Positions 1 to 30,464 are shown, numbered from the stretch's first letter. The stretch: 64,000 nucleotides of DNA from Nitrospirota bacterium (GCA_963790025.1 CAWBMP010000005.1:96001-160000), one strand, 5' to 3'. The notes: a model not told the origin generated them from the letters alone. Program-made: numbers and translations.

Positions 1-1078
1 CGCCCTTCTTAATGTCGCCAATATAATTTGCATTCTTATGCTGGCCGATCGATTGTCAAATCCGATTGTAGCAGTAGCGATAGGCGTTGTGTTTGGAGGT
101 TTTGTGCAGTTCGGATGCCAGGTACCTTCTTTCTTTAAAAGCGGGTACGTGTTTTTTCAGAGGAAGAAAAATACAGAGCGCGATGCTTTCTGGCATCCTG
201 GGCTCAAGAAAATCGGGCGACTTATTGTTCCGGCTACTGCCGGACTCGCGATAACCCAGATAAACATATTTATAAGCACGATCCTTGCCTCGAGTCTTCC
301 GATAGGCAGCATCACCTATCTGTATTATTCGATGAGACTGATCCATTTCCCTGTAGGCATCTTCGGAGTTGCCATGGGAATGGCAGTGCTGCCGGCATTA
401 TCGGAGCATTCGGCAAATGGCGAAACCGACAAGATCAGGGAAGATTTCTCATTTGCGCTTCGCCTCCTGTTCTTTATATCTGTGCCTGCCATGGCAGGGC
501 TAATAGCTCTGAGGTATCCCATTGTTTCCACCCTGTACATGAGGGGCAGGTTCGGCATGGCAGCGACTACAGGAACTGCTGATGCCCTGATGTTCTATTC
601 TGTCGGTATATGGTCTATGGTCGGCGTCAGGGTCATTACAGCGACGTTTTATTCAATGCAGAATACGCGCACCCCGGTGATTATAGCGGGGGCAGCAATG
701 CTGACAAATATTCTGTTGAGCCTGGCGTTAATGGGCCCGATGCTGCACCGTGGCCTTGCCTTCGCGAATGCCATAGCCTCGGGAGTAAATTTTCTGCTTC
801 TTTTCTATTTCCTTAGAAAAAGGCTCGGCAGTCTCGGCACAAGGAGGATAGTCCTATCGTTTGCAAAGACATTTCTGGCGGCTGCCTTAATGGGATTTAC
901 AGGATGGCTACTGGCAAGGCGTACCTTGATATGGACTGAGGGCGGACACGAGCTTCATAGGGCGGGATACCTCGCCGTAATCATGGTTTTATGCCTCGGA
1001 ATATATGCCGCTGTATCGTATTTGATAAAAAATGAGGAAATGGGATATATAATAAAGAAGATAAGAAGTAGGCAGTAA
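1..1078 (+). CDS. murJ: Lipid II flippase MurJ/MviN, 5'-truncated by the window edge
   Basis: The frame stays open upstream of the tracked Met to the window start. Multi-TM protein with QINIFISTILAS..GSITYLYYSMRL..FPVGIFG and FYS..NTRTP motifs. Confidence 0.93.
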   Translation, partial: ALLNVANIICILMLADRLSNPIVAVAIGVVFGGFVQFGCQVPSFFKSGYVFFQRKKNTERDAFWHPGLKKIGRLIVPATAGLAITQINIFISTILASSLPIGSITYLYYSMRLIHFPVGIFGVAMGMAVLPALSEHSANGETDKIREDFSFALRLLFFISVPAMAGLIALRYPIVSTLYMRGRFGMAATTGTADALMFYSVGIWSMVGVRVITATFYSMQNTRTPVIIAGAAMLTNILLSLALMGPMLHRGLAFANAIASGVNFLLLFYFLRKRLGSLGTRRIVLSFAKTFLAAALMGFTGWLLARRTLIWTEGGHELHRAGYLAVIMVLCLGIYAAVSYLIKNEEMGYIIKKIRSRQ

Positions 1079-1143
1079 GCAGCAAAGGACAAATATACAA
1101 GACCTATAAGTGAATTTTTTTGCTGCTTACTGCCTGCTTCTTA
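1062..1143. repeat. 25-bp inverted repeat built from heptamer units (hairpin at the murJ 3' end)
   Basis: taagaagtaggcagtaagcagcaaa (1062-1086) pairs with tttgctgcttactgcctgcttctta (1119-1143); the only difference is a G-U wobble. Confidence 0.85.
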
Positions 1144-1161
1144 CTATTTTTAGGGGGTGCT

Positions 1162-1788
1162 ATGATCGTAAAAAGTATTGCTGTCGGGCCGCTTCAGGCC
1201 AATTGTATTATAGTTGCCGACGAGCCGTCCAAAAAAGCCATTATTGTGGACCCCGGAGACGAGCCTGACCGGATAATTGACATTATCAATGACATGGGAC
1301 TAACCGTTGAATGTATAGTATGCACGCACGGCCATTTTGATCATATGGGCGTGGTAAGCGATATTAAAAAAGAGACAGGGGCACGGGTTGCCATACACCG
1401 GGACGAGCTTACGGTATATAAAGGCTCAAAGGATATGGCTGCGATGTGGGGTTTTTCTATGGACTCCGTTCCTGAGCCCGATATCTTATTGTGTGAAGGC
1501 GATACTGTGGTGGTGGGAGATTTAAACCTTGCCGTTCTCCATACGCCGGGACACAGTCCCGGAGGTATATGTCTTTACGGAGAAAATACGGTTATAACGG
1601 GCGACACCCTGTTTCAGGGCTCTGTAGGGAGGACAGACTTTTACGGCGGTGACATGGAAAAGCTCAAACAATCTTTTCGCAGGCTGATGGCGCTGCCGGA
1701 AGATACGAAAGTTTTTCCGGGGCATGGGCCTGCCACGACTATCGGCCATGAGAAAAAATGGAACATGTTTTCAGAAGAATTCCTGTAG
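1162..1788 (+). CDS. MBL-fold metallo-hydrolase (glyoxalase II-like)
   Basis: THGHFDH, HTPGHSPG, GDTLF, PGHG motifs; ATG 1162 follows AGGGGG. Confidence 0.9.
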   Translation: MIVKSIAVGPLQANCIIVADEPSKKAIIVDPGDEPDRIIDIINDMGLTVECIVCTHGHFDHMGVVSDIKKETGARVAIHRDELTVYKGSKDMAAMWGFSMDSVPEPDILLCEGDTVVVGDLNLAVLHTPGHSPGGICLYGENTVITGDTLFQGSVGRTDFYGGDMEKLKQSFRRLMALPEDTKVFPGHGPATTIGHEKKWNMFSEEFL

Positions 1789-1987
1789 TTAAGGCAGTTG
1801 ATGAATGACCTGAAAAAATAGCGGACATAAGAGAGAAATTTGTTATCCATTTCGATTTTCACCTTTAAAATTTTCTTCTTTAAGGTACTCTTCGTTAACA
1901 ATAGGCAAACATATTTCTCCCGGCTGATTGCGTGTGGTATAATTGCTAAGTTTATTTATTGTTAAACAATGAAACAGGAGGAGAGAA

Positions 1988-3259
1988 ATGAAGCGTTTGT
2001 GGCTGTTGGTTGTTATTACTATATTTGGCACGGCATTGTTTGCGGTTTTTCAGACCGGCACGTTTGCTTCCGAACGCCCAGGGGTCTCCGAAAAGTCGAA
2101 GACTTTTGGGGGTTCAGATGGAAGCGGCATTACCTTGCAGGTGGATAAGACGTCGCTGAATAATGGCGGGACAATTACAATTACAGGATCGGCCCCTCCG
2201 GGTAAGCCCGTCTATATTGAAGTATGGTCCGAAAAGCAGGTGCGCGCATCCCGTTTCGATTCCGATGTGGACAAGGATACGGGGAAAAGACCTTATATTC
2301 TTTACATGACTCATGAAATGCCTGCTTACTACAACATCTTTGTCCCGAAAGACCAGAAGGACAATCTGGACAAGATAAAAAAAGAAGGTAAGCAGTGGAG
2401 TTTCTCAAAGGCCCTGAAGGATGTAGGCGCCGACGAGGTTTACTCTGTACCGGCGGCAATAAAGATAGACAGATATCAGGCCACGCTTATGGGCAGCATT
2501 ATAGGGTCCCGGGGAGATATGCTTCCGGCAATGGACAAAAAAGAGAACCGGAAACTTTCAATGCAGTTGGCAAAAGTCCGTTTCAGATCTCCCGACAAAG
2601 TACTCGGGGCAGGAGTTGAAGTAAACCCGGACGGCACTTATAAGGCAGTTCTGGACATCAGGAAAGGGCTTGCCCCCGGCAAATATAATATCGTGGCGGC
2701 AATTGACAAGAACACAAGAAGCCGGCCTGCTGTTTTTGAAAACAATATTACATTTCCGCATATTTATCTCGGCAACGCCGGTACGAGCCTGAACATTTTC
2801 TGGCCCTTTTTCCTGTCTCTGATCGTCTCTATATTCGGGGTGCTTATGGGCGCTGGAGGCGGTTTCATAATGAACCCTCTTCTGGTTTCCATCTGGCCGC
2901 TTCCGCATGCAGTTGTGGCCGGGACTGTTATGCCCACTGTCCTGTTTTCGCAAGGCAGCGGTATTTATAACTATTCGAGGATAAAATTCATCAGTTGGAA
3001 GCTGGGCATCGCCATAGGGCTCGCAATGGTTGTCGGAGGTTTTATCGGACCAAAGCTGACCGAGTTGATTACTCTCGATCAGTTTAAATTCGTCTTCGGA
3101 TGGATCCTGATTGTGCTTGCGGCACTTATGTATTGGCAGACGACGCCGGGATATATGTCAAGGAACAAGAAGGAACAGGCCATCCTGAAGGAATTCAAGA
3201 AAAAGGCCGAGGAATGCATAAAGGCCAAAGAAGAATGCTCATTGAATGAAGCTAAATAG
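1988..3259 (+). CDS. TauE/SafE (TSUP) transporter N-half fused to a large exported soluble domain
   Basis: Signal peptide, ~250 aa hydrophilic region, then the TauE motif FGVLMGAGGGFIMNPLL..AVVAGT and ~4-5 TM helices; RBS AGGAGG. Confidence 0.8.
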   Translation: MKRLWLLVVITIFGTALFAVFQTGTFASERPGVSEKSKTFGGSDGSGITLQVDKTSLNNGGTITITGSAPPGKPVYIEVWSEKQVRASRFDSDVDKDTGKRPYILYMTHEMPAYYNIFVPKDQKDNLDKIKKEGKQWSFSKALKDVGADEVYSVPAAIKIDRYQATLMGSIIGSRGDMLPAMDKKENRKLSMQLAKVRFRSPDKVLGAGVEVNPDGTYKAVLDIRKGLAPGKYNIVAAIDKNTRSRPAVFENNITFPHIYLGNAGTSLNIFWPFFLSLIVSIFGVLMGAGGGFIMNPLLVSIWPLPHAVVAGTVMPTVLFSQGSGIYNYSRIKFISWKLGIAIGLAMVVGGFIGPKLTELITLDQFKFVFGWILIVLAALMYWQTTPGYMSRNKKEQAILKEFKKKAEECIKAKEECSLNEAK

Positions 3260-3268
3260 GAGGCTGGA

Positions 3269-3658
3269 ATGAAAGTTACTTTTTGGGGACACGAATTTGA
3301 AGTTAATTTAATATTAGGGTGTATAGGAGGTTTCCTCATAGCGATAGTCTCATCGATGTTCGGTTTCGGAGGCGGCCCTTTTATGGTGCCGCTTATGACC
3401 GTAGGCCTCGGACTGCCCATGTACATCGTGGTCGGCAGCTCCCTTCTGGCTATTTTCTTTAATACATTGATGGGGACCATGCGCCATTACCAGTTTGGGA
3501 ACTTCGACCTTGTTTTCTTTCTTGTCATGTTCCCCGCCGCGGTCCTGGGCGGTTTTATCGGTCCGCAGATTGCTAAGAGGGTGAGTCCACTGGTGGTAAA
3601 GAGGATAGCTGTCGCCGGGTTGTTTATTCTGGCATTGAATCTGCTTGGGGTTTACTGA
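3269..3658 (+). CDS. TauE/SafE transporter C-half (separate polypeptide)
   Basis: SSMFGFGGGPFMVPLM..VVGSSL TauE repeat, ~4 TM helices, own RBS GGAGG. Confidence 0.82.
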   Translation: MKVTFWGHEFEVNLILGCIGGFLIAIVSSMFGFGGGPFMVPLMTVGLGLPMYIVVGSSLLAIFFNTLMGTMRHYQFGNFDLVFFLVMFPAAVLGGFIGPQIAKRVSPLVVKRIAVAGLFILALNLLGVY

Positions 3659-3660
3659 TC

Positions 3661-3720
3661 GGTAAAGGAGTATATGGGCCTATTCACTCGTTTACTCATT
3701 CACTCTTTTACCCATATACT
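3661..3720. repeat. Degenerate octamer tandem repeat with inverted arm
   Basis: attcactc gtttactc attcactc ttttaccc atatact, preceded by complementary ggtaaag gagtatat ggg. Confidence 0.6.
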
Positions 3721-3737
3721 ATAAATTGGAGGTAATG

Positions 3738-5825
3738 ATGGGAGATATATCATCAGTTTACAGCATGTGCGGAATGTGCGCTGTAAGATGTCCGATCAGG
3801 GTGGAGGTAGAGGACGGCGTACTGAAATGGATTGAGGGTAATCAGCACGTACCGGGGATACAAGGAAGCCTTTGTGCAAAAGGGTCTGCCGGGCTGGCAT
3901 TTGAATATGATACGGAGAGGCCCCAATATCCCATGATAAGGACCGGCCCGAGGGGTTCTGGAGAGTGGCGGAAGGCAACATGGGGCGAAGCACTGGATTT
4001 CATAACAGATAGCCTAAAAAAAATAAGGGAAAAATACGGCAGTAAGGCAATTGCTATTGCAGACAGGTCCGGCCCTTTTACGGACCTGTCCAAAAGCTTT
4101 ATTAAGGCACTTGGATCTCCAAACTACTTTGACCATGACGACGCGTGCGCCAAGAATGTAAATCTGGCTTGCCAATCTGTTTTCGGATATGGACGCGGCG
4201 ACATATCTTACGATTTTGCGAATACCGGCCATATTGTGTTATACGGAAGAAATGTATTCGAATCGCTGCAGGTCAAGGAAGTAAATAATATCCTCGATGC
4301 CATGGACGCGGGTACAAAACTGACTTATATAGATATCAGGGCAACGGTGACTGCTTCAAAAGCTGACAAGTTCCTCATGATCAGACCCGGGACGGATTAT
4401 GCACTTAATCTCGCCCTTATTCATGTGATTTTAAAAGAGAGGCTGTATGATGCCGACTTTGTAAATAAATGGGTGGCGGGGCTGACGGAGCTTGAAGGCT
4501 TCGTTGCGCCTTATACTCCGGAATGGGCTGAAAAGGAAACAGGGATACCGGCTTATGAAATTACCGGTCTGGCGCATGATGTGGGCCGGAACAGGCCAAG
4601 AGTAATATTTCACGGCGGCTGGATGCTCTCGCGTTACATCGATTCATTTTACAGCAGCAGGTCGATTTATATCTTAAATGCCTTGATGGGAAATATCGAG
4701 ACGAAAGGCGGACTGATTATTGCAAAAGGACCGAAGGACGCAGGAGCAAGGCCGCTGCGTTCTCTCGGAGAATCGATTCCGGAGGTCAAAGACAAGATAG
4801 TCGACGCAGGGATGCCGGACAAGTCTCTGGGGACAGGACATATCATAAACCTGTACAAGGCGATTAAAACAGGAGTTCCTTATCCTGTAAAGGCGTTTTT
4901 CGCATATCGTTATGACCCTATGGCGTCTCTGCCTGACCCTGAAGCTCAGAAAAAGGTACTGGACAATCTTGACCTGCTTGTTTCCATAGACGTTAATTAT
5001 AGTGAAACTGGATGGTATTCTGATGTAATACTGCCCGAAGCCACATATCTGGAGAGGTCCAATATAATAGCGACGCAGAAGGGTCCGAAGCCGGGCTTTA
5101 TAATGAGGAGGCAAGCTATTGCGCCAAGATTTGACAGCAAGCCTGCATGGGAGATATTCACGCTTGTTGGCGGGAAAATGGGAGCCGGCGAGTATTTCCC
5201 GTACAAGAGCATAGAGGACATCTGGAATTACCAGCTGTCGGGCACAGGGATTACGATTGACGACTTCGACAAGAAGGGAATGGTGGGCCTTGCAGAAAAA
5301 CCTTTGCTTATGGACAGGGACGATCTCAAATTCAAGACCCCCTCCGGGAAGATCGAGTTTGTTTCCGGGGTGCTGTCAAAGAACACTTTCGAGTCATTTG
5401 CTTCTTATGTGAGTCCCCAAAAACCCGAAGACGGTTGTTTCAGGCTGGCATTCGGGAGGACGGCGGTCCATGCCCACGCTCAGTCGCAGAACAATATCTA
5501 TCTCAACGAGATTATTTCCGAAAATGTGCTCTGGATAAACAGGGAGGCGGCGGACAAGCTCGGTATAAACGATGGCGAAATGGTGGAAGTGAGCACTGAC
5601 GGATACAGCGGCAGGATCAGGGCAAAAGTTACGCCATACATACATCTCGAAGCGGTTTTTATGCTGCATGGCTTCGGCAATGAGATCCCGCTGAAAACCA
5701 GGTCTTTTAAAAAGGGACTGAGGGACACGAAGTTCGCCGGTGGGCTGCTGGAAACAGTGGATCCTGTCGGGGGCGGCGTTGCCTATCTTGAATGCATGGT
5801 GAGGGTCAGGAGGATTAAAGAATGA
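3738..5825 (+). CDS. Molybdopterin oxidoreductase catalytic subunit, polysulfide/thiosulfate reductase (PsrA/PhsA)-like, no Tat leader
   Basis: N-terminal CGMCAVRC..C 4Fe-4S motif, GSLCAKG, HDDAC candidate Mo-ligand Cys, DVILPEATYLER, C-terminal molybdopterin-binding domain. RBS GGAGG; alternative ATG at 3735. Confidence 0.85.
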   Translation: MGDISSVYSMCGMCAVRCPIRVEVEDGVLKWIEGNQHVPGIQGSLCAKGSAGLAFEYDTERPQYPMIRTGPRGSGEWRKATWGEALDFITDSLKKIREKYGSKAIAIADRSGPFTDLSKSFIKALGSPNYFDHDDACAKNVNLACQSVFGYGRGDISYDFANTGHIVLYGRNVFESLQVKEVNNILDAMDAGTKLTYIDIRATVTASKADKFLMIRPGTDYALNLALIHVILKERLYDADFVNKWVAGLTELEGFVAPYTPEWAEKETGIPAYEITGLAHDVGRNRPRVIFHGGWMLSRYIDSFYSSRSIYILNALMGNIETKGGLIIAKGPKDAGARPLRSLGESIPEVKDKIVDAGMPDKSLGTGHIINLYKAIKTGVPYPVKAFFAYRYDPMASLPDPEAQKKVLDNLDLLVSIDVNYSETGWYSDVILPEATYLERSNIIATQKGPKPGFIMRRQAIAPRFDSKPAWEIFTLVGGKMGAGEYFPYKSIEDIWNYQLSGTGITIDDFDKKGMVGLAEKPLLMDRDDLKFKTPSGKIEFVSGVLSKNTFESFASYVSPQKPEDGCFRLAFGRTAVHAHAQSQNNIYLNEIISENVLWINREAADKLGINDGEMVEVSTDGYSGRIRAKVTPYIHLEAVFMLHGFGNEIPLKTRSFKKGLRDTKFAGGLLETVDPVGGGVAYLECMVRVRRIKE

Positions 5826-6331
5826 GCGAGTATTACATATATCAGGACCAGAAGAGATGCATAGGATGCTATGCATGCGAGGTGCACTGCAAGACCAAAA
5901 ACAATCTGCCGGTCGGCCCCAGGTTCTGCAGGATCATCCCGGTAGGGCCGAAGATGACAGCGGGTATCCCGAAAATGCAGTTTATCTTCATGCCCTGTTT
6001 CCATTGCGAAAAGCCGTGGTGTGTTTCGGCATGCCCGACAGGGGCGATGCAGAGAAGGGCAAAGGACGGCATTGTATTCGTTGAGCAGTCGTTGTGTGTG
6101 GGCTGCAAGTCATGCATAACCGCCTGCCCGTGGGGTGTGCCCCAGTGGGACCATGAAACCGGCAAAGTAATAAAGTGCGATTACTGCAGGGACCGGGTTG
6201 ACAAAGGCCTGAAACCGGCATGCGTCATCAAATGCACTGCACACGCGCTTCGCTGGGTCACTCCGGAAGAAGCATCCGGTTTGAAAAGAGAAAGATTTGC
6301 AAAAGAGGTCGCCGAAAATTTCAATTACTAA
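5822..6331 (+). CDS. 4Fe-4S electron-transfer subunit (PsrB/DmsB/NrfC family)
   Basis: CIGCYACEVHC, CFHCEKPWCVSACP, CVGCKSCITACP, KCDYC..PACV; ATGA overlap with the upstream gene. Confidence 0.92.
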   Translation: MSEYYIYQDQKRCIGCYACEVHCKTKNNLPVGPRFCRIIPVGPKMTAGIPKMQFIFMPCFHCEKPWCVSACPTGAMQRRAKDGIVFVEQSLCVGCKSCITACPWGVPQWDHETGKVIKCDYCRDRVDKGLKPACVIKCTAHALRWVTPEEASGLKRERFAKEVAENFNY

Positions 6332-6344
6332 TCTGCATAAGACC

Positions 6345-7145
6345 ATGACTGTAAGATTTGAAATCGACGGTAAAAAAATTGTTGCGGAGCAGGGAGTGAC
6401 TGTTCTGGATGCGGCCGGCAGAGAAGGCATCCGGATCCCCACGCTTTGTTACCATAAGGCACTCGGGCCGAATGGTGTGTGCAGATTATGCATAGTCGAA
6501 GCGCAGGGACCTGGGTTAAGCGGTATGGTCACTACCTCATGCAATCTCAAAGCCACAGAAGGCATGGTTGTCGAAACATCTTCGGAGCATATAATTTCGA
6601 TGAGAAAGACTTTGCTCGACCTGCTGCTTTCCGGCACGGTTTTATCCGCACAACTTAAGGAATTGGCGGAGGCTGCCGGTGTTCGCGGGGGCCGGTTTAA
6701 AATCGAAAAGAGCGATAAGTGCATATTATGCGGACTCTGTGTGAGAGTGTGCCGTAACGTTATAGGGGCAGCCGCATTGCTTTTCGAAACATCGGGCAAG
6801 AACCGCAACAGCGTTGCGGAAGAGATCAGTTTGCTTCGGGAACGCTGCATAGGTTGCGGAGCATGCGCCGCTGTTTGCCCGGTATCCGCCATAAGGATGG
6901 AGGATACCGGTTTAAAGCGAAATATTATTGTTTATGGCGATATCGCAAATGCTTTGGATTTGGTTTCATGCAATATGTGCGGAACGCCATATGCGCCGCA
7001 GAAATTCATAGATTCGGTCGTGTCCCGGATCGATGTGGAATTGAGAAAAGGAATAAAAAAACTTTGTCCCGAATGTGCCCGTCGCTTTTATGTGGGGGCG
7101 TTAACAGGGGAGTTTCAGCCTGATTCTTTTCAAGTGCGGGAGTAA
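6345..7145 (+). CDS. 2Fe-2S/4Fe-4S protein (NuoG-N/HoxU-like diaphorase small subunit)
   Basis: IPTLC..GVCRLC..C 2Fe-2S motif, CILCGLCVRVC, CIGCGACAAVCP, extra CNMCG/CPEC. Confidence 0.85.
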   Translation: MTVRFEIDGKKIVAEQGVTVLDAAGREGIRIPTLCYHKALGPNGVCRLCIVEAQGPGLSGMVTTSCNLKATEGMVVETSSEHIISMRKTLLDLLLSGTVLSAQLKELAEAAGVRGGRFKIEKSDKCILCGLCVRVCRNVIGAAALLFETSGKNRNSVAEEISLLRERCIGCGACAAVCPVSAIRMEDTGLKRNIIVYGDIANALDLVSCNMCGTPYAPQKFIDSVVSRIDVELRKGIKKLCPECARRFYVGALTGEFQPDSFQVRE

Positions 7146-7148
7146 AAC

Positions 7149-9098
7149 ATGGTTGAAAAAGCCTTTTCTTTTTGGAATAACGAACTGAACGAAACTTTTG
7201 CGCCTCTTAAACACGGAGAAAAACAGCTTGCGGCAGTTATAGGCTGGGACGGAATCCAGGTATTCGATCCCGGCATCGACATCATCAGTCTTTGCTATGA
7301 ATATGCCTGTGCTGTGCGGGAAAGTTCCTGCGGGCAATGTATACCTTGCAGAACGGGTTCACGCGTACTGGCGGATATTTTCAGGAGAATAAGAGACGGC
7401 GAAGGACGGCCTGTTGACCTTGACGACATAAAAAGCATCTCGACGGCAATGGCTGAAGCCTCGATGTGCGAGATAGGCAAAAGCTCCCTGCGCGTGTTCC
7501 TATTCCTCATGGAGAAGGTCAAGGATATATTCATGGCTGCAATCAAGGGCACCACGGAGAAGAGGAATGGATATATATATAAATCCATAGTAACAGCCCC
7601 CTGCATACAGGCATGTCCCATACATCTTGACATCCCGAAATATATTGAGGAAATAAAATTCGGAAGGTTCCGAGAATCATTGGAAGTTATAAGGCAACGA
7701 CTCCCTCTGCCGGGTGTCGTGGGCAGGGTCTGCGTGCGGCCATGTGAGTCCAACTGCAGGCGGGGACTCGTCGATGAGCCGATACAAATAAAACACCTGA
7801 AGCGGTTTGCTGCGGACAATGCGGCTGTTGAGGAAGCTGTGCAGTGTGGGCGGCGCGGGGTGCGGGTGGCGATAGTGGGCGCCGGCCCCTCCGGGCTCAC
7901 ATGTGCACATTTTCTTGCTCGACTGGGGTATGACGTCACCATCTTCGAGATGCTGCCTGAACCCGGCGGTATGGCTGCGGTCGGCATTCCCGATTACCGG
8001 CTGCCCCGAGCTGTGCTGCGCAGTGAAGTAAAAGCCATAGAAGATCAGGGCGTTAAAATATTTTATGGGCATGCGCTCGGTGTACATTTCACTTTGGACG
8101 ACCTTGAAGAACAGGGATTCAAGGCCGTCTTTATAGGCATGGGTTGCCATTGCCATAAAAAAATGGACATCGAGGGAGAGGACGCCGGATATTACGGTTA
8201 TGTGCCGGGCGTATATTTCCTGAGGAATATTAATCTCGGACTTATGGATGAAGTGCCACGAGGAAAAAAAATTGCAGTTGTCGGAGGAGGCAATGTTGCG
8301 ATAGATTGTGCGCGCATCGCCTTCAGATCAGGTTTTGAGGAATCTCATGTTGTTTACCGCCGTTCGCGCAAAGAGATGCCTGCCGACCCTGTTGAAATTG
8401 CCGATGCCGGGGCCGAAGGGGTGCAATACCATTTTCTTACCGCCCCCAAAAAGATTATTGGTGAAAGCGGGAAAGTGACAGGACTGGAGTGCTTCAGGAT
8501 GGAACTGGGTGAGCCCGATGCCTCGGGCAGAAGAAGACCGGTTGGAGTCAAGGGTTCCGAATTTGTAATAAACGCCGATGTTATTGTTGCGGCCATCGGT
8601 CAGGAGGGAGATTTCTCATGCGTATGCAATCTTCCCGGCGTCAAAACATCGGAAAGGGGAGCGTTGATTGTCGATGAAAATTTAATGACTTCCAGAAAGG
8701 GTGTATTTGCCGGGGGCGACTGCGTTACCGGACCCGATGTGCTCATACGCGCCTGCGCTCACGGCAGGCTGGTAGGCCTTAAAATCGACCGGTTTATAAC
8801 GACGGGAAAGATCGGGGTCCTTGAAGAGGAAATGGATGAAAAGCTTTTGAACAGTTTCAGCGGCCTTGATGCGAATGAGAAGGTGAAAGTGCCCGGCGGA
8901 ACTGTGCGCATTCCTGTAAGACATGAGCCGCCGACGGCGAGAAAGGGGGATTTCCGGGAGGTGGATAAAGGGTTCACTCCTGAAGAAGCGGTTTCAGAGG
9001 CGAGCCGGTGTCTAAGGTGCTACAGAGTGCTCATGTATGTATATTCCAAACCCAATAGAACGTATATTGCAGAAGATAATAGTTCCGGAACTTTATAA
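7149..9098 (+). CDS. FAD/NAD(P)H-dependent Fe-S oxidoreductase (NuoF-type 4Fe-4S domain fused to a GltD/SudA-like domain)
   Basis: ESSCGQCIPCRTG..MCEIG, CIQACP, GRVCVRPCE, GAGPSG, GGGNVAIDCAR, YRRS, EASRCLRC. Confidence 0.88.
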   Translation: MVEKAFSFWNNELNETFAPLKHGEKQLAAVIGWDGIQVFDPGIDIISLCYEYACAVRESSCGQCIPCRTGSRVLADIFRRIRDGEGRPVDLDDIKSISTAMAEASMCEIGKSSLRVFLFLMEKVKDIFMAAIKGTTEKRNGYIYKSIVTAPCIQACPIHLDIPKYIEEIKFGRFRESLEVIRQRLPLPGVVGRVCVRPCESNCRRGLVDEPIQIKHLKRFAADNAAVEEAVQCGRRGVRVAIVGAGPSGLTCAHFLARLGYDVTIFEMLPEPGGMAAVGIPDYRLPRAVLRSEVKAIEDQGVKIFYGHALGVHFTLDDLEEQGFKAVFIGMGCHCHKKMDIEGEDAGYYGYVPGVYFLRNINLGLMDEVPRGKKIAVVGGGNVAIDCARIAFRSGFEESHVVYRRSRKEMPADPVEIADAGAEGVQYHFLTAPKKIIGESGKVTGLECFRMELGEPDASGRRRPVGVKGSEFVINADVIVAAIGQEGDFSCVCNLPGVKTSERGALIVDENLMTSRKGVFAGGDCVTGPDVLIRACAHGRLVGLKIDRFITTGKIGVLEEEMDEKLLNSFSGLDANEKVKVPGGTVRIPVRHEPPTARKGDFREVDKGFTPEEAVSEASRCLRCYRVLMYVYSKPNRTYIAEDNSSGTL

Positions 9099-9121
9099 TA
9101 TGTTAACGAAGTCGGAATGGC

Positions 9122-9625
9122 ATGATGGAAGGAACGCAGGAAATGGACCCACAGCCCGATAGCGAGCTCGTCCGGTATTCGACTGCCAAAGCAGAAGGCG
9201 TCAGGACTGTTCTCTTTGTATGCAGTGGTAATGCATTTCGTTCACAGGTCGCCGAGGGACTGGTAAATCATTATTTTAAGGGGCAATGGGCTGCCTTTTC
9301 CGCCGGGTTGCTGCCGGCTGGGATTCCCCGTGACCTTGTTAAAGTGATGGCCGAGCAGGGTATAGACATTAAAAGCCACCGATCAAAACATCTTGACCTG
9401 TTTACCGGGTGCTGTTTCGACAAGGTGTTCATCCTCTGTGCCGATGTAAGCCGGATCTGCCCGGAACTTCCCGGATATGGAGAAACAGAGGTCCTGTGTT
9501 TCCCCGACCCGCTTTCCGCTGCTGGATATGCCGAAGGATGCTGCATTGGAATAAAGGCGACTTTTCGAAGCCTTCGCGATTCAATGAAAACGACCCTTCT
9601 ATCTGTCATGAAGCGCCTCACATGA
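9122..9625 (+). CDS. LMW protein-tyrosine phosphatase / thioredoxin-type arsenate reductase family protein
   Basis: P-loop CSGNAFRSQVAEG (C-x5-R), SAG, distal C..CP and DP motifs; start codon uncertain. Confidence 0.8.
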   Translation: MMEGTQEMDPQPDSELVRYSTAKAEGVRTVLFVCSGNAFRSQVAEGLVNHYFKGQWAAFSAGLLPAGIPRDLVKVMAEQGIDIKSHRSKHLDLFTGCCFDKVFILCADVSRICPELPGYGETEVLCFPDPLSAAGYAEGCCIGIKATFRSLRDSMKTTLLSVMKRLT

Positions 9626-12285
9626 AAAAATTACGCGGAATTCTTGCCCTGCAAAGGGGACGGGCTTTCCGGAAAGAGGCGGGAGATATCGGAGCAAAGT
9701 ACCGGTTTTTCAGGCATCTTCTGAGGCACAACAAAGCTGCGCTTACAGCTATTGCCGACATGGAACAGCTTTATTACAGCGGTAAACCTTTCAGCCTTAC
9801 CACAATTAGAATAAAGTATGAGGAACTGCTTGAGGCTGTTAACGGAATCCTCTACGCTTATAGTGTATTGTCGGAGCACGACATAGACGTCCTATCTGAA
9901 AAGCTCGCCGCCCTGGACCGGGGTCTTTTTCACTATTTCAATCCGCACTGCGATTCAGCGGACAGGAGGTTTATTCTGCCGTTTGAATCGATTACTCCCG
10001 CCATGAAAAAGATCGTGGGCGGGAAGGCCGCCAATCTTGCCGCAATACATAATATGATGGGACTGTCCGTGCCCCGGGCCTTTTCCGTTACGGCCCATGC
10101 TTTTGAATACTTTGTCGAGCACAACGGGTTGCGGAGGTACATGAATGAGGAATTTGTCCGAATTTCTTCCGGTTCAACCGCGGATCTCGAAAAGACGTGC
10201 GCCCGGCTTAGAAGTGTTTTCCTCGAGGCGGATGTGCCTCCGCTGTTGGAAAAGGAAATACTTAGCGCATACGCGGTGCTTGAGAAGGCCACTCATCCCG
10301 GGGTGCGCATCGCTATGAGAAGCAGTGCCGTCGGTGAGGATGCCGAGGCCAGTTTTGCCGGCCAGTATGAAACTGTGCTTAATGTAAAAGAGGGCGATAT
10401 TCTGAACGCTTACAAGCGTGTTATTGCGAGCAAGTACTCGGTGCAGGCTATCACGTATCGACAGCAGCACGGACTTTTCGACCGCGAGACGCCCATGGGT
10501 GTTATCGGAATTGTCATGATCGATTCGAAAGCGAGCGGGGTTCTCTATTCAGTGGACCCTCTTTCGCCGTGTTCCTGCACTATGAGGATCAATTCACTCT
10601 GGGGCGTGGGAGAGCAACTTGTCGACGGGAGCGCCTCGCCTGACATTTTTGTTATCGGCAGGGAAAAGAGGAAAATACTAGAGCGGCATATTGCAGCAAA
10701 AACCTCACGGCTGGTGAGCCTTGAAAGCGGAGGGGTCCGGATGGAGGAGGTAGGCGCATATGAGGCCGCTGTTCCATCCCTTGACGATGCTCAGGTGATT
10801 ACCCTGGCCGATTGCGGATGGCGTCTTGAGGAATTTTTCTCGTCTCCGCAGGACGTTGAATGGGCCCTCGATGCGAACGGCTCCCTCTACATACTTCAGT
10901 CGCGGCCACTACATCTGCCCAATAAGGCCGCGGAAGATAAAGGACATGATTCTATCGACTGTCCGGTGCTTTTTTCGAGAGGCATTACAGCGTCACCAGG
11001 CGTTGCGACAGGGAAGGTTTTTATTGTGGAAAAGGACGCGGACCTGAATGCGGTCCCCGACGACGCAATCCTCGTATCCAGGACAGCGTCCCCCCACCTG
11101 GCAAAGGTCATCGGAAGGATCAGGGGAATTATCACCGACATCGGAAGCGTCACAAGCCACCTGTCATCGGTTGCTCGCGAATTCGGCATACCGGCCCTTG
11201 TCGATACCGGGACTGCCACTGGTTCCCTTCGCAATGGCGAGATCATAACAATGTCGGCAACGGCCGCTAAAGTGTACGAAGGTGTCGTTGAGTCTCTTGC
11301 AAGGCAAATGCGGCCTGCGCGGAATCCAATGTTTGATAGTCCGGTCCACCGGTTGATGAGGGACATCCTCGACAAGATCGCCCCGCTGGGCCTGACCGAT
11401 CCGGAAGCCCCGCAATTTGCTCCTGAGGGGTGCGCTACTTATCACGATATAATACGCTATACGCATGAAATGGCGGTGCGCTCGATGTTCGGGATCTCGG
11501 ATGAGGCGCGGCCTTCAAAATCATCCGTGGAACTTATCACTAATGTCCCCCTGTCTATCAGTCTTATCGACATGGGCGGCGGATTGAAGGAGGGACTTGC
11601 TGTTTCCGGGCTTGTCACCCCTGATTCTATTCAATCAGTTCCAATGCGCGCTGCATGGAAAGGATTCACGCACCCGGGGGTCAACTGGGAAGGCACTATG
11701 AATTTTGGAGGCAGCAAACTTGCCGGCCTGCTTGCAGTCACTGCTATCTCGGAATTAGGAGAACAGGGCGGCGGAGAGAGCTATGCGCTTATTTCACGTG
11801 ATTACATGAACATGAATGTCAGGTTCGCCTATCACTTTGCTGCAATCGACACATTGTGCGGCGAGGACAGTCAGCAGAATTATATCTCGCTCCAGTTTTC
11901 GGGCGGAGCCGGAAACTACTACGGACGCTCACTCAGAGCGCGGTTGATCAGCGAGATTCTGGAACGGTTGGAGTTCAGGGTAACTTTGAAGGGTGACTTT
12001 GTAGAGGCCTCGTTTTCACGGTACGACAGAAAAGCTACCGAAGATCGGCTCGACCTGACGGGGAGGCTGCTGGCCTCTGTCCGCCTGCTGGACATGACCC
12101 TGTCGAACCAGGAGGAGGTGTCGGTGCATACAGAGGAGTTTTTAAAAGGCAACTATGATTTTCTGGCAAAAAGACGTGACGATGAACTGGGCAATTTCTA
12201 TGTTCGGGGCGGGTACTGGAAACGTCTCACCTGGATGGACGGCCCTGCTGTATGCAGGACGGTGCCCGCTGGGGCCGGGGGATAG
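9622..12285 (+). CDS. PEP-synthase-like protein (ATP-grasp plus swivel His domain plus uncharacterised C-terminal domain)
   Basis: VGGKAANL, MRSSAVGED.ASFAGQYETVLN, PQDVEWA..ILQSRP, GSVTSHLSSVARE. ATG 9622 overlaps the upstream stop (ATGA). No PEP-binding TIM barrel recognisable. Confidence 0.85.
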   Translation: MKKLRGILALQRGRAFRKEAGDIGAKYRFFRHLLRHNKAALTAIADMEQLYYSGKPFSLTTIRIKYEELLEAVNGILYAYSVLSEHDIDVLSEKLAALDRGLFHYFNPHCDSADRRFILPFESITPAMKKIVGGKAANLAAIHNMMGLSVPRAFSVTAHAFEYFVEHNGLRRYMNEEFVRISSGSTADLEKTCARLRSVFLEADVPPLLEKEILSAYAVLEKATHPGVRIAMRSSAVGEDAEASFAGQYETVLNVKEGDILNAYKRVIASKYSVQAITYRQQHGLFDRETPMGVIGIVMIDSKASGVLYSVDPLSPCSCTMRINSLWGVGEQLVDGSASPDIFVIGREKRKILERHIAAKTSRLVSLESGGVRMEEVGAYEAAVPSLDDAQVITLADCGWRLEEFFSSPQDVEWALDANGSLYILQSRPLHLPNKAAEDKGHDSIDCPVLFSRGITASPGVATGKVFIVEKDADLNAVPDDAILVSRTASPHLAKVIGRIRGIITDIGSVTSHLSSVAREFGIPALVDTGTATGSLRNGEIITMSATAAKVYEGVVESLARQMRPARNPMFDSPVHRLMRDILDKIAPLGLTDPEAPQFAPEGCATYHDIIRYTHEMAVRSMFGISDEARPSKSSVELITNVPLSISLIDMGGGLKEGLAVSGLVTPDSIQSVPMRAAWKGFTHPGVNWEGTMNFGGSKLAGLLAVTAISELGEQGGGESYALISRDYMNMNVRFAYHFAAIDTLCGEDSQQNYISLQFSGGAGNYYGRSLRARLISEILERLEFRVTLKGDFVEASFSRYDRKATEDRLDLTGRLLASVRLLDMTLSNQEEVSVHTEEFLKGNYDFLAKRRDDELGNFYVRGGYWKRLTWMDGPAVCRTVPAGAGG

Positions 12286-12797
12286 CTTCAGGGCTTTCCG
12301 GACTGGTGGGCAAAGTGGTGGGCAATGCATACCGTGATTTTCTCGACACGATCGAAGCGTATTATTATTTCCCTTTCGCTGTGGCAAAGGGAATTGAACT
12401 TTCCCATGGCACAGTTCATGTGAAAATTAAGCCGCTGGCCGGCAATATCGACAGGGCAGGCGGCATCGCTGTTGCTATAAAAAATATCGATAATTACTTT
12501 GTGCTCAGGACAAACGCACTTGAGGGGAATGTGGTCCTTTTCGAATACAGGAACGGGCGGCGGTTTGCACTCGTCAATGTGAGGAAAAAGGTCGAGACCG
12601 GTGTCTGGCACAGTCTAAGTGTCGAAATTGAAGGAGACACTCTTAAAGGATATCTGAACGGGGAGCAGATGCTTGAGTACAGGGCGGACGGGCCTCTGCA
12701 TGGGTACATAGGGCTATGGACGAAATCAGATTCAGTCATTTATTTTGATGAATTTACATTGGAAACCTCCGGGAGAAAGCAGATTATCGAATTTTGA
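12252..12797 (+). CDS. LamG/DUF1080-like beta-sandwich domain, probably the frameshifted C-terminus of the upstream protein
   Basis: DRAGGI, NYFVLRTNALEGNV, WHSLSV, GYIGLWTKSDSVIYFD; frame is open back into the upstream ORF near 12230. Confidence 0.65.
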   Translation: MQDGARWGRGIASGLSGLVGKVVGNAYRDFLDTIEAYYYFPFAVAKGIELSHGTVHVKIKPLAGNIDRAGGIAVAIKNIDNYFVLRTNALEGNVVLFEYRNGRRFALVNVRKKVETGVWHSLSVEIEGDTLKGYLNGEQMLEYRADGPLHGYIGLWTKSDSVIYFDEFTLETSGRKQIIEF

Positions 12798-12841
12798 TGG
12801 ACCATAAATAGCGTTGTTTTTGGGGTGTATCAGGCTGTGTA

Positions 12842-12850
12842 TGCTATAAT
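12842..12850 (+). promoter_or_regulatory. Extended -10 sigma70 promoter element upstream of cdaA
   Basis: TGcTATAAT about 80 nt before the cdaA start. Confidence 0.5.
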
Positions 12851-12928
12851 AACTCTGCGTGTTTTGCGGAGCCATCCGTTTTTTTTTGCACAACTCTCGG
12901 CGTTATTTTGTTTGGATAAGGGGAATCG

Positions 12929-13729
12929 TTGTTAGAATTATTTAGGCAGATCAGGTGGCAGGATTTTCTTGATATCGCTATCGTCTCGGTAGTACTGTAC
13001 CAGGCCCTTCTCATTGTCAGGGGCACCAAGGCGGCGCAAATGCTCCTCGGGCTTGGTGTCCTGCTTATCGCTTACTTTTTCTCAAATTTTTTCCAACTCT
13101 ACACTATGGACTGGATTATCCAGAGTTTCTGGTCCCAGGTGGTTATTGTGCTGATCGTGCTTTTCCAGCCTGAAATCAGAAGGGCACTGGCGCAGATGGG
13201 GGAGTCTTCATTTTTCCAGAATTTGACCGTTGCAGAGGAGTTGAAATCCCTGGAAGAGATAGTCAAGGCGTCTATCGCATTGGCCCACAGGAAAATCGGG
13301 GCATTGATCGTTATTGAAAGAGAGGTCAGCCTCAAGGACTATGTTGAAATTGCCACGCAGTTGGATGCAAAGGTTTCCAAGGAATTACTGCTGAGCATAT
13401 TTCATCCTACCTCGCCGATTCACGACGGTGCGATAGTCATCAGGGGGAACAGGGTTGTTGCCGCAGGATGTTTCCTGCCGATAACGCTCGGATCGGATGT
13501 CAGCAAATCGCTGGGCACCCGGCACCGGGCCGGTATCGGTATTACCGAGGATACAGATGCAGTGGCTATCATTGTTTCGGAGGAGACTGCAATGATTTCG
13601 GTGGCCCTGCACGGCAGGTTCGAGACCCATGTCGACATGGGCACGTTGCGCGATATCCTCACCGACCTGTTTGCCGAATCAAAAAAAGGGAAGGCCGCTG
13701 CAAAAAAAATTATTTCGAAGGACTCGTAA
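12929..13729 (+). CDS. cdaA: Diadenylate cyclase CdaA
   Basis: Three N-terminal TM helices, FQPEIRRAL, HDGA and GTRHRA catalytic motifs, VSEET. Confidence 0.95.
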   Translation: MLELFRQIRWQDFLDIAIVSVVLYQALLIVRGTKAAQMLLGLGVLLIAYFFSNFFQLYTMDWIIQSFWSQVVIVLIVLFQPEIRRALAQMGESSFFQNLTVAEELKSLEEIVKASIALAHRKIGALIVIEREVSLKDYVEIATQLDAKVSKELLLSIFHPTSPIHDGAIVIRGNRVVAAGCFLPITLGSDVSKSLGTRHRAGIGITEDTDAVAIIVSEETAMISVALHGRFETHVDMGTLRDILTDLFAESKKGKAAAKKIISKDS

Positions 13730-13735
13730 GATATA

Positions 13736-14374
13736 ATGAAAAAGATACTTTTCAACAATCCCGGCACCAAGGTACTTGCGGTTGTCCTTGCGATATCCAT
13801 GTGGATATTTGTTACCTATCGGGGGCAGTCGGAAATGGCCATTGATGTTCCTATCGCGTTCAAGAATGTGCCGAAAGGACTGGAACTGCTGCGCGTGAGC
13901 GCGAAGATGGCGGCATTGAATTTGCGCGGACACGAGAGTCTGCTGAAAAGTCTGAGACCTGTAGACATCGGCGTTGTTATTGACCTGTCCAAAGCGAAGA
14001 AAGGGGAGGCCATATATTATTTGGACAAGAACTCCATAGTCGTACCGGGGACCGTCGATATCCTGAGAATAGAGCCGACGTCGGTCAAAGTAGTGCTTGA
14101 TGAATCACTGATGAAGACGCTTCCGGTGAAGGCAACTATTATAGGTACTCCTGAAAGAGGATTTAAAGTTGTTTCTGTTGATGTCAAGCCTTCTTCAGTG
14201 ACGGTTGAAGGTTCCAGGACAGAACTTGCCAGACTTGCGGTCCTGAGGACGGAGACGATCGATGTGACTGGACTCGATTCGAATGTCACAGAGAGCGTCC
14301 GGATTAATACCAACGGCAGGAATATAAGGGTAAAGACACCTGAAGTAATAGTAAGCATTGCCATAAGGAGGTAA
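13736..14374 (+). CDS. cdaR: CdaR/YbbR-domain regulator
   Basis: KVLAVVLAISMW TM anchor, YbbR-type beta repeats, position between cdaA and glmM. Confidence 0.88.
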   Translation: MKKILFNNPGTKVLAVVLAISMWIFVTYRGQSEMAIDVPIAFKNVPKGLELLRVSAKMAALNLRGHESLLKSLRPVDIGVVIDLSKAKKGEAIYYLDKNSIVVPGTVDILRIEPTSVKVVLDESLMKTLPVKATIIGTPERGFKVVSVDVKPSSVTVEGSRTELARLAVLRTETIDVTGLDSNVTESVRINTNGRNIRVKTPEVIVSIAIRR

Positions 14375-14378
14375 TATA

Positions 14379-18028: not shown

Positions 18029-18452
18029 TAACGTGCGCCGGCCTTCGTGAATATTGAGGGTTTGTTCCGGTAATATTTTTCTCGAAGAGGATTTTAGTTT
18101 TTAAACAAAAAGTTCCGAAGATGCCACTGAACTCTTGTGTCGTTGTGGACGTCCGCATTCTGTTAGAAGCTTTTCAACTTTTGCATCTTTCTTAATCTTT
18201 ATTGTGTCGCTCATTGCGTTAACCGTCGTAAAAGCGCGGTTACTCAATACTGAGGCTAATCAATAGCTTGCACTCTCACCCACAATGATCTTTATGCAAG
18301 CACTGTCTTCTCCGTGGCCAGGGAGGACGCATATTCAAGACACGCGAGGATATTACTGAAAATACATTTCTTGCCTGTTATAATAATGACAATTGAATGG
18401 GAAAAGGTGGAAAGCGAAACACAGGGTAAAGGTCAAATCGGTGGGGGCGTTT

Positions 18453-22380: not shown

Positions 22381-22384
22381 GTTC

Positions 22385-30427: not shown

Positions 30428-30464
30428 AGTATGAATGCCTTGTGTAATGATGAAAGGACGTCTA

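Follow-up and report, generated by a model that had tools for sequence, protein, structure and literature searches.

A leaderless Psr/Phs-type molybdoenzyme beside a candidate NADPH input module in a Nitrospirota bacterium

Thiosulfate holds a central place in the sulfur cycle of anoxic environments, and both the enzyme that cleaves it inside sulfate reducers and disproportionators and the energy source for this step of very low redox potential are unsettled. A gene cluster from a Nitrospirota bacterium puts this question in a concrete form: where would a molybdenum (Mo) enzyme of the polysulfide/thiosulfate reductase (Psr/Phs) lineage obtain its electrons if it has neither an export signal nor a membrane anchor? 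The cluster occupies positions 1988-12797 of a 64,000-nucleotide (nt) stretch of DNA (GCA_963790025.1 CAWBMP010000005.1:96001-160000), hereafter called the window. An earlier reading made from the sequence alone (the sequence-only reading) took the cluster for an undescribed cytoplasmic sulfur-oxyanion redox system, coupled to reduced nicotinamide adenine dinucleotide phosphate (NADPH) and equipped with its own transporter and kinase/phosphatase pair. That interpretation was right in its core, and wrong on the phospho-control and the gene count. With moderate confidence, we lean toward the view that genes 1988-9098 encode a cytoplasmic NADPH-linked system reducing thiosulfate or polysulfide, in which a soluble electron-input module replaces the quinol subunit. 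The cluster and its relatives offer concrete wiring schemes (NADPH, Bfu-type, and Nuo) and a small soluble four-subunit target.

A molybdenum subunit without leader or anchor

The genes that would make up this system are listed below (ORF, open reading frame; aa, amino acids; bisPGD, bis-pyranopterin guanine dinucleotide). The two permease halves are referred to as TauE1 and TauE2.

1988..3259, + strand: TauE/TSUP permease, N-terminal half (Pfam TauE, E 9e-19, profile positions 2-113 of 237; 4 transmembrane helices)
3269..3658, + strand: TauE/TSUP permease, C-terminal half (Pfam TauE, E 3e-22, profile positions 127-237 of 237)
3735..5825 (ORF from 3726), + strand: leaderless PhsA/PsrA-family Mo/W-bisPGD catalytic subunit, 696 aa (Molybdop_Fe4S4 + Molybdopterin + Molydop_binding)
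5822..6331, + strand: PsrB/DmsB-type ferredoxin with four [4Fe-4S] motifs, 169 aa (Fer4_11, E 3e-24)
6345..7145 (ORF open from 6297), + strand: NuoG-N-terminal/BfuA/WorA-like adaptor (Fer2_4, E 3e-18, + 4Fe-4S motifs)
7149..9098, + strand: flavoprotein in which a NuoF C-terminal 4-helix [4Fe-4S] domain is fused to a GltD/NfnA-type module (PF10589 NADH_4Fe-4S, PF14691 Fer4_20, PF07992 Pyr_redox_2)

The catalytic subunit belongs to the Psr/Phs lineage and not to the formate dehydrogenases, in agreement with the sequence-only reading. Among 26 matching NCBIfam models, PhsA (NF012032) scores best with 508 bits, against 252 bits for Fdh-alpha. The best match in the PDB is PsrA from T. thermophilus (2vpw_A; E 1.4e-113, 384 bits), after which the scores drop to 186 bits for acetylene hydratase and 170 bits for FdhF. 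These scores, together with the tree discussed below, rule out an identity as formate dehydrogenase or acetylene hydratase.

It had also been noted that the subunit starts directly at its Fe-S motif, without a leader for twin-arginine translocation (Tat), and this holds up on closer inspection. The C-x2-C-x3-C motif covers residues 12-19, the first Fe-S cysteine being residue 12 as counted from the ATG at 3735. The ORF cannot carry a Tat leader because there is no start codon between the TauE2 stop (3658) and 3726, a GGAGG is found just ahead of the ATG at 3735, and PsrA from T. thermophilus is alignable only from its residue 36 onward.

To place the enzyme among its relatives, we used the best 80 loci (50-88% identity) of at least 585 confirmed relatives, retrieved with a 9-sequence alignment as the query (individual loci are given by their L numbers). 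According to their record titles, they comprise 40 Thermodesulfobacteriota, 22 Nitrospirota, 5 metagenome-assembled genomes (MAGs) labelled as Myxococcota, 10 untyped loci, and one each from Bacillota, Chloroflexota, and a Pseudomonadota MAG. The absence of a membrane anchor, claimed earlier as well, could be confirmed: Pfam gives no NrfD/PsrC match among the 14 proteins of 1-15728 (elsewhere in the window the scan used NCBIfam at E<=1e-20, plus Pfam on 19 ORFs), and no such cluster recurs in the 80 loci.

A search of the Mo subunit against 1.84 billion cluster representatives returned 13,410 matches at E<=0.001. The best full-length matches (40-51% identity) begin at the Fe-S motif, and Tat-bearing relatives appear from about 40% identity downward. 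We then built a quick LG+G4 tree of 109 rows, namely 73 locus or window ORFs, 11 leaderless representatives, 18 Tat-bearing representatives, and an outgroup of 7 distant sequences (excluded were 7 Mo ORFs of the loci, either mis-called or shorter than 600 aa). All 84 leaderless rows, i.e., the 73 ORFs including the window and the 11 representatives, form a single clade with a support of 100 in the Shimodaira-Hasegawa-like approximate likelihood ratio test (SH-aLRT), nested among the 18 Tat-bearing rows; the deep order of the tree is unsure because of long branches among the representatives. The phylogeny that had been called for thus places the subunit in a Tat-less clade on the Psr/Phs side of the dimethyl sulfoxide (DMSO) reductase family, apart from the formate dehydrogenases. 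Even when the longest possible ORFs are taken, the first Fe-S cysteine lies at a median residue of 11, and 71 of the 73 lack an RR-like string before it (2 have one). The RR motif is present in all 18 Tat representatives.

The cysteine that ligates the Mo (aligned to PsrA C173) is present in the window and conserved in 79 of 84 members of the leaderless clade. With PsrABC/PhsABC (2vpw; Salmonella PhsABC), the window system thus has in common the lineage, the FS0 motif, the Cys ligand, and a beta subunit with four clusters. It differs from them by the lack of a Tat leader, an NrfD/PsrC anchor, and a quinol site, by a putative soluble NADP(H) flavoprotein module, and by Arg and Trp in place of His145 and Arg332, to which we return below.

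A candidate route from NADPH to the molybdenum site

In the scheme that we favor, electrons would travel from NADPH to flavin adenine dinucleotide (FAD) and along an Fe-S chain (flavoprotein, adaptor, ferredoxin, and FS0) to the Mo-bisPGD. There, in the cytoplasm, thiosulfate would be cleaved reductively to sulfide and sulfite, or polysulfide/sulfane sulfur would be reduced. The WorA/BfuA-like adaptor would sit on the distal end of the ferredoxin, and the NuoF-C::GltD/NfnA-type flavoprotein (NuoF-C being the NuoF C-terminal domain) would act as the second input protein.

The entry point is the flavoprotein. The module fused to its NuoF-C 4-helix domain has two [4Fe-4S] clusters, an FAD fold, and an NADP(H) site. 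The best PDB match is NfnA from C. saccharolyticus (9bov_A; E 2e-111), part of an NfnABC that is described as NADPH-oxidising. Further matches are archaeal NfnA, the StnC-like 8oh5_C, NfnL/NfnB, and GltD. The GGGNxA plus YRR signature, which had been taken to indicate NADP(H), can be kept in the longer form GGGNxA...YRR(S/T)RxEMPA, common to the window and five aligned relatives. There, the GGGN-A...YRRSRKEMPA of the window aligns with two NfnA, NfnL (5jca_L), the NfnB-type 4ylf_B, and StnC; GltD chains named after NADPH matched the flavoprotein as well, and the motif alignment covers the five relatives only. Judging from motif and homology, the flavoprotein probably uses NADP(H).

Compared with NfnABC/StnABC/NfnSL (9bov, 9n5u, 8oh5, 5jca), the GltD-type module, the two [4Fe-4S] clusters, the FAD, and the NADP(H) motif are shared. 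In NfnA and StnC, however, the module is fused to an adaptor and a cofactor-less Mo-like domain and works together with B and C subunits, whereas in the window it is fused only to the NuoF-type 4-helix Fe-S domain and stands beside a real Mo enzyme with a Cys ligand.

Further along the chain, the ferredoxin (5822-6331) reaches 148 bits with the DMSO_dmsB model, under the cut-off of 214, and its 16 Cys, arranged in four clusters, are invariant in 19 homologues. The adaptor (6345-7145) combines a [2Fe-2S] motif with two [4Fe-4S] motifs and a Cys-rich helical C-terminus, and finds its best PDB match over the full length in WorA (9mqx_A, E 1e-37). WorA belongs to WorABCSL from Acetomicrobium mobile, a tungsten aldehyde oxidoreductase of the Bfu type. 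The C-terminal helix of WorA recruits the four-cluster WorS in this complex, with the clusters S4 and A4 within 10.7 A (PMC12318220). The likeness to the window lies in an arrangement, predicted for the latter, in which a pterin subunit rests on a ferredoxin with four clusters and a small NuoG-N-like protein recruits this ferredoxin. On the other hand, the catalytic subunit of WorABCSL is a WOR and no member of the DMSO reductase family, and the window lacks counterparts of WorB, which carries flavin mononucleotide (FMN), and of the NuoE-like WorC, having a GltD-type FAD protein instead.

A complex model of the ferredoxin with the adaptor points in the same direction. It scores 0.79, against 0.00 for the best of three controls; of 157 solved complexes, 116 score this high, as do 2 of 215 mismatched pairs, although this calibration is only rough because the alignments were custom-made for both partners. 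The docking runs share at least 93% of their contacts, with a predicted local distance difference test (pLDDT) of the partner of at least 82. In the modelled interface, the Cys motifs of the ferredoxin (residues 64-75 and 90-107) contact a cluster motif (171-177) and the C-terminus (217-254) of the adaptor. The model therefore supports binding of the adaptor at the distal end of the four-cluster ferredoxin. As for the four-subunit complex that had been proposed, the docking of its 2Fe-2S subunit on the ferredoxin is backed by this model; the exact gene order speaks less clearly for it, recurring in 3 loci only.

The split permease would carry a sulfur anion into or out of the cell. Both halves exceed the PF01925 gathering score of 32.6 bits (68.5 and 79.8 bits, respectively). 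TauE1 has a signal peptide and, ahead of its transmembrane half, a periplasmic domain of about 235-240 residues built from two beta-sandwiches (AlphaFold model, pLDDT about 85-92 over residues 50-260). This domain is 48-77% identical in 17 Nitrospirota loci where it aligns over most or all of its length (20 with partial matches). It gives nothing in Pfam and no Foldseek match against the PDB at E<=0.001, and its best score in the Atlas, 0.77, counts as no more than a lead. In 19 of 80 loci, which all belong to the Nitrospirota subclade, two separate TauE halves are encoded upstream of the Mo gene, and in 2 more the second half stands alone at a contig edge; single-gene forms are found in L013, L034, L054, and L041. 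Overall, TauE is encoded within 4 kb upstream of the enzyme in 32 of the 64 loci with enough sequence (Nitrospirota, Thermodesulfobacteriota, and Bacillota), so that the transporter noted beside the enzyme is a recurrent neighbor. Upstream of the split TauE, Nitrospirota loci may also contain a gene for a universal stress protein (11 loci) or a PhnD-like periplasmic binding protein (5 loci), neither of which is present in the window; L002, L006, L007, L017, L020, L022, L024, L028, L032, and L036 are among the loci with such recurrent upstream genes.

Changing partners, substrate, and direction

The Mo subunit and the ferredoxin form the constant part of these loci. By tblastn, the ferredoxin gene adjoins the Mo gene in 68 of 80; of the remaining 12, six are contig ends and six represent one subclade with FmdE/FdhE-like neighbors. 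Among the 8 long Mo relatives examined, two (P0124 and P0222) are Mo-ferredoxin fusions, and none is a fusion of Mo subunit and adaptor.

What follows the pair is far more variable. Downstream partners were classified by ORF clustering wherever a locus extends 4 kb or more downstream (62 loci), and Pfam on 14 loci agrees with the result. A nuoA/B/C/D/H/I/J/K/L/M/N cluster without nuoEFG is found in 24 of 62, a GltD-like flavoprotein in 20, and NuoE/NuoF-type genes in 2 (L004 and L079), which leaves 16 without a recognised partner. A tblastn search places a GltD-like gene downstream in 23 of all 80 loci, including three that had been classified as having no partner (L029, L053, and L063). The form seen in the window, i.e., an adaptor followed by a NuoF-C::GltD fusion, is confined to L001, L011, and L013. 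Full NuoF::GltD fusions occur in L035, and the remaining GltD-like proteins of Desulfobacterota have no NuoF-C domain and are mostly encoded ahead of the adaptor. On the tree, the partner type shifts repeatedly (at least 5 times for Nuo and at least 10 times for GltD), and all three types occur inside the Nitrospirota subclade. The Mo-FeS pair is thus a conserved core of which the electron partner is swapped. For the earlier claim of a conserved gene order, this means that the pair is kept and that the exact order of the window is restricted to the three loci above.

In the Nuo-linked loci (L014, L017, L022, L024, L026, L028, L030-L034, L036-L039, L043-L046, L051, L066, L069, L070, and L073), the Mo-FeS pair lies directly upstream of the 11-subunit nuo cluster, in which nuoD is followed by nuoH. 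One reading suggested by these loci is that the cartridge works together with a proton pump, either powered by it or powering it. In L004 (12620-15484) and L079 (9980-11764), genes for a CBS protein and for NuoE-like and NuoF-like (FMN) proteins come after the core. They constitute a Bfu-like set, with both PF01512 and PF01257 present in L004, and might provide a bifurcating version of the enzyme. Two further arrangements were observed: tandem leaderless Mo-FeS pairs in L029 (314-5847) and L039 (5904-12600), and, in L054 (12649-15447; Desulfofundulus australicus DSM 11792), a GltD-like ORF of 932 aa that runs into a methyl-accepting chemotaxis protein signalling domain and is followed by a dCache chemoreceptor.

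More tentatively, leaderless PhsAB may be regarded as a plug-in cartridge for reducing (or oxidizing) sulfur that is mounted on an NADPH flavoprotein, on a Bfu-type NuoE/F/G set, or on the NuoEFG-less 11-subunit Nuo pump. Should this doubtful generalization be true, the very low potential of the thiosulfate couple would have three different solutions, namely NADPH combined with removal of the products, flavin-based bifurcation, and reverse electron flow through a complex-I-like machine at the expense of the proton motive force. The window version would then be the first NADPH:thiosulfate oxidoreductase that is both soluble and of the molybdenum type. An energy-dependent thiosulfate reduction has been postulated on the basis of uncoupler sensitivity, and the Nuo form would then be the long-sought enzyme for this step of thiosulfate disproportionation. 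Genome-based predictions of thiosulfate reduction or disproportionation would, if this is confirmed, have to count Tat-less PhsAB pairs together with their partner modules.

Parts of this picture are already in print, and the label "undescribed" given to the system needs to be narrowed accordingly. Frank et al. (2016) linked PsrAB of Thermodesulfovibrio sp. N1 to a Nuo cluster without NuoEFG and suggested a coupling to sulfur redox reactions (PMC5165239); this PsrAB-Nuo form is the commonest architecture in our loci. Hashimoto et al. (2022) described PhsAB without a subunit C and stated that PhsAB had not been functionally analysed (PMC9751629). In the same paper, the locus numbers of PhsA-1/B-1 (GF1_30490/30500) immediately precede those of Nuo proteins detected only under thiosulfate disproportionation, and this gene order (PhsA-1, PhsB-1, Nuo subunits) matches that of the Nuo-linked loci. 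A 2026 proteomics study of Dissulfuribacter thermophilus lists a PhsAB-like pair without Tat signal and PhsC among the most increased proteins during thiosulfate disproportionation and leaves the electron donor open (PMC13490349). PhsAB mutants of D. alaskensis G20 are reported to have mild thiosulfate defects (PMC4215793), and in a survey of the superfamily, PsrA, PhsA, and SrrA are assigned to the periplasm (PMC10100899).

The cytoplasmic PhsAB-like pairs of PMC13490349, PMC9751629, and PMC5165239 thus resemble the window enzyme in having Tat-less A and B subunits without an anchor, and come from bacteria that reduce sulfate or disproportionate sulfur compounds. They differ in that the available passages name no NAD(P)H module and either leave the donor open or suggest a Nuo link, whereas the window adds an adaptor and a flavoprotein. 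In the literature searched (subscription journals aside), we found no Psr/Phs enzyme that is linked to NAD(P)H or to a Bfu-type module. What appears to be new here is therefore the predicted NADPH wiring of a Tat-less Psr/Phs-type enzyme, the cytoplasmic form as such having been published. Two other systems were considered and set aside. The MOLY cluster of sulfur disproportionators is distinct, since it is predicted to be exported and has a TorD/DmsD chaperone (PMC9676032 and PMC12998232), and PhsAB of D. amilsii does not belong to the leaderless clade because it carries a Tat signal (PMC6378623).

A number of observations weigh against an NADPH-linked thiosulfate or polysulfide reductase. 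The Mo subunit stays under the curated PhsA cut-off (508 against 694 bits). At the positions of PsrA H145 and R332, which we take to be catalytic residues of PsrA, the window has Arg and Trp. The same replacements prevail in the leaderless clade (Arg in 79 of 84; Trp in 70 and Tyr in 9 of 84), whereas 8 of the 18 Tat representatives have the His and 10 have the Arg. Given these residues, the enzyme may act on another substrate. As to the partners, the core is joined to a Nuo complex (24 of 62 loci) as often as to a GltD-like protein (20 of 62), ORF clustering recognises no partner in 16 of 62, and the window form occurs in three loci only. The docking model may pass partly on account of likeness, because a solved WorA-WorS look-alike exists, and the strains of DITHS69_2028, GF1_30490, and THER_0567 are not among the named matches. 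Finally, energetics are unfavorable. The standard potentials are -402 mV for thiosulfate/sulfide + sulfite, -320 mV for NADP, and about -70 mV for menaquinone, so that NADPH-driven thiosulfate reduction is uphill by about 80 mV and requires low product levels. Sulfite and sulfide would have to be held low, e.g., by DsrAB, to make the reaction feasible.

The same potentials nourish the most serious alternative, which we nonetheless regard as unlikely. Here, the enzyme would run in the opposite direction, with a sulfur couple of low potential being oxidized (sulfide + sulfite to thiosulfate, sulfide to polysulfide, or sulfite to sulfate) and NADP+ reduced. This would supply an anaerobe with NADPH, and TauE would export the product. 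Under standard conditions, the formation of thiosulfate coupled to NADP+ as acceptor runs downhill, the family of TauE/SafE takes its name from sulfite export, and the related Mo-FeS pairs, placed in front of nuo clusters without nuoEFG, occupy the NADH-input position of complex I, as befits an electron donor. No sequence feature examined in the cluster discriminates the reaction direction. Against this direction stand the proteomics in PMC13490349, which tie a PhsAB-like pair to thiosulfate consumption, and the table in PMC10100899, in which the Psr, Phs, and Srr enzymes are all described as reductases.

Improbable, in our estimation, is a role in detoxification, in which the Mo enzyme would reduce an oxyanion of a different chalcogen or of a metalloid (selenite, selenate, tellurite, or arsenate) and the ArsC-like protein would act in the same pathway. 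The selenite reductase SrrA does belong to the same lineage (PMC10100899), the model of YgfK, a putative selenate reductase subunit, matches the flavoprotein (310 bits, at a cut-off of 835), an ArsC-like gene is adjacent, and the active-site residues are unlike those of PsrA. However, the clade is concentrated in lineages that reduce sulfate or disproportionate sulfur compounds (40 Thermodesulfobacteriota and 22 Nitrospirota of 80), the ArsC-like gene is found near the Mo gene in 2 of 80 loci and is tied to the dikinase, the ArrA model reaches 133 bits on the Mo subunit, and no ars genes are nearby.

We give just as little credence to a bifurcating or confurcating complex, in which electrons from NADPH would be split at the GltD-type FAD between the low-potential Mo site and a second acceptor, e.g., ferredoxin or NAD+. 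It is true that bifurcating enzymes (NfnABC, NfnSL, and WorABCSL; PMC11829005 and PMC12318220) provide the solved structures nearest to both accessory subunits, and that L004 and L079 join the same Mo-FeS core to NuoE/NuoF-type genes in a full BfuABC-like set. In the window cluster, however, Pfam detects neither an FMN domain (PF01512) nor a NuoE-like subunit (PF01257) nor a second flavoprotein of the NfnS kind. This leaves the known bifurcating sites incomplete, and the missing FMN domain and NuoE-like subunit make bifurcation of the Bfu type unlikely in the window.

The adaptor and flavoprotein might also form an independent NADPH:ferredoxin-type oxidoreductase, with the partner of the PhsAB-like pair encoded elsewhere, e.g., a Nuo complex, as would fit the variable partner genes, the loci without an adjacent one, and the use of Nuo by close Nitrospirota relatives (L014, L017, L022, and L024 among others); yet the genes overlap or lie 3 nt apart, different NAD(P)H modules recur beside the same core, and the docking model passes, which makes such independence a slim prospect.

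The ArsC-like/dikinase pair and the flanks

The NADPH-linked reductase, as we propose it, ends with the flavoprotein gene at 9098. The remainder of the cluster and the site behind it consist of the following features.

9122..9625, + strand: ArsC-like (thioredoxin-type) protein with a low-molecular-weight phosphatase fold (LMWPc, E 4e-12)
9622..12797, + strand: dikinase resembling phosphoenolpyruvate (PEP) synthase, frameshifted at about 12220-12250; ORFs 9622-12285 and 12252-12797 (PPDK_N, E 3e-83; PEP-utilizers, E 1e-16; the second ORF has a ConA-like lectin fold)
12866..12879, + strand: terminator-like hairpin with T-run between the cluster and cdaA (consensus scan only, the window count of such sites equalling the shuffle expectation)

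The ORF calls return nine + strand ORFs within 1988-12797, at the coordinates given in the sequence-only reading. They are indeed co-directional and tightly spaced: the junctions at 5822 and 9622 are 4-nt ATGA overlaps, and the other gaps measure 3-77 nt. The ORFs amount to eight genes, one of which is frameshifted. The separated "tail" that had been counted as a gene of its own is the end of the dikinase after a frameshift, because the intact relatives in L011 (1060 aa) and L004 (1059 aa) span both frames, following one frame to about 12219-12279 and another from about 12234-12240. The change of frame at 12220-12250 is either a real pseudogene or an assembly error.

The ArsC-like protein aligns with ArsC from B. 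subtilis (1jl3), and the equivalents of CX5R, C82, C89, and D105 are all in place. In contrast to this thioredoxin-coupled ArsC, it scores below the cut-off of arsC_pI258_fam (TIGR02691; 78 against 174.3 bits) and is not part of an ars operon, no ars genes being found near it. In L011, a thioredoxin-reductase-like flavoprotein (17341-18297; 318 aa, Pyr_redox_2) directly follows the ArsC-like/dikinase pair, which fits a thioredoxin-coupled role of the ArsC-like protein.

With PEP synthase and pyruvate phosphate dikinase, the dikinase shares the ATP-grasp domain (PPDK_N, 280 bits) and the swivel His domain (PEP-utilizers, 60 bits, TSH motif), its N-terminal part being likened to PEP synthase and rifampicin phosphotransferase. 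It differs from them in having a lectin C-terminus and no PEP/pyruvate domain. PDB matches stop at about residue 570. Pfam finds nothing in the final 328 residues of the first ORF, and the PEP/pyruvate-binding C-terminal domain is absent. The middle domain has no Pfam match either, and the structures listed by Foldseek match mostly the lectin domain. In a model of the intact L011 protein (mean pLDDT 70.5; about 80-95 in the lectin part), the C-terminus matches CBM66 (4b1m, E 6e-12) and other lectin folds and may be called CBM66/DUF1080-like. By analogy with GWD-type glucan dikinase + phosphatase pairs, one might think of a glycan-type target.

Dikinases of this kind constitute a large family, with 642 matches among 7,997 scored candidates and a typical length of about 1060 aa. 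In the best 120 relatives, an N-terminal LMWPc domain with the same cysteines is fused to the dikinase in six and PP2C in one (P0310, P0323, P0336, P0347, P0357, P0373, and P0369), and a dual-specificity phosphatase stands beside the dikinase in four Desulfobacterota loci (L033, L038, L074, and L077). Three phosphatase folds are thus tied to one dikinase family. The kinase/phosphatase pair that had been noticed is, in other words, a genuine unit, fused in some relatives and with the three-cysteine pattern of ArsC in its CX5R protein, and it is not the enzyme's own: the pair at 9122-12797 is a separate two-gene module rather than a regulator of the redox enzyme.

This leaves little room for the original model of one nine-gene system under phospho-control, which we consider the least convincing together with the independent oxidoreductase. 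The overlapping, co-directional genes speak for it, as do the dikinase homologues found within 7-9 kb of the Mo gene in 7 of 80 loci (several arrangements, two phyla) and the recurrent link with phosphatases. However, the closest relative among the 80 loci, L001, has neither the ArsC-like gene nor the dikinase, and its cdaA directly follows the GltD-like gene; the dikinase family is mostly found elsewhere; and the C-terminus resembles a carbohydrate-binding module in a window copy that is frameshifted. Moreover, the regulators that are conserved beside Mo genes are two-component sigma-54 systems (response regulators in 19 loci and histidine kinases in 16), none of which is present in the window cluster.

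The eight genes are embedded in housekeeping surroundings, with murJ and a metallo-beta-lactamase (MBL)-fold gene upstream and cdaA-ybbR-glmM downstream (Pfam). Consensus scans of the window for promoters and terminators gave match counts equal to those in shuffles. An extended -10-like TGTGGTATAAT is located at 1934-1944, 45 nt ahead of the TauE1 start. A sigma-54-like TGGCAT-N5-CTGCT lies at 3630-3645, inside the end of TauE2, with window-wide matches at chance level (36 vs 32). Rfam yielded no RNA or riboswitch match of note in 1-16000 of the window, other than one below-threshold hairpin at 1064-1141.

The MBL-fold gene (1120-1788, + strand) upstream of the TauE genes is also present in L001 (82% identity), and a 69% match is located at the start of L007, about 8 kb away from the TauE genes of that locus. 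An MBL-family protein is mentioned in PMC9676032 within the eight coding sequences common to six vent disproportionators. Two further regions of the window may be mentioned. At 20204-24891 (+ strand), four co-directional genes encode a protein resembling aldo/keto reductases, DUF6599 and DUF362 proteins, and a NapG-like polyferredoxin of 505 aa that contains a Fer4_5 domain. About 18 kb from the cluster, at 30435-31826 (+ strand), a protein of 463 aa combines a signal peptide and one CxxCH haem-type motif with three rhodanese domains.

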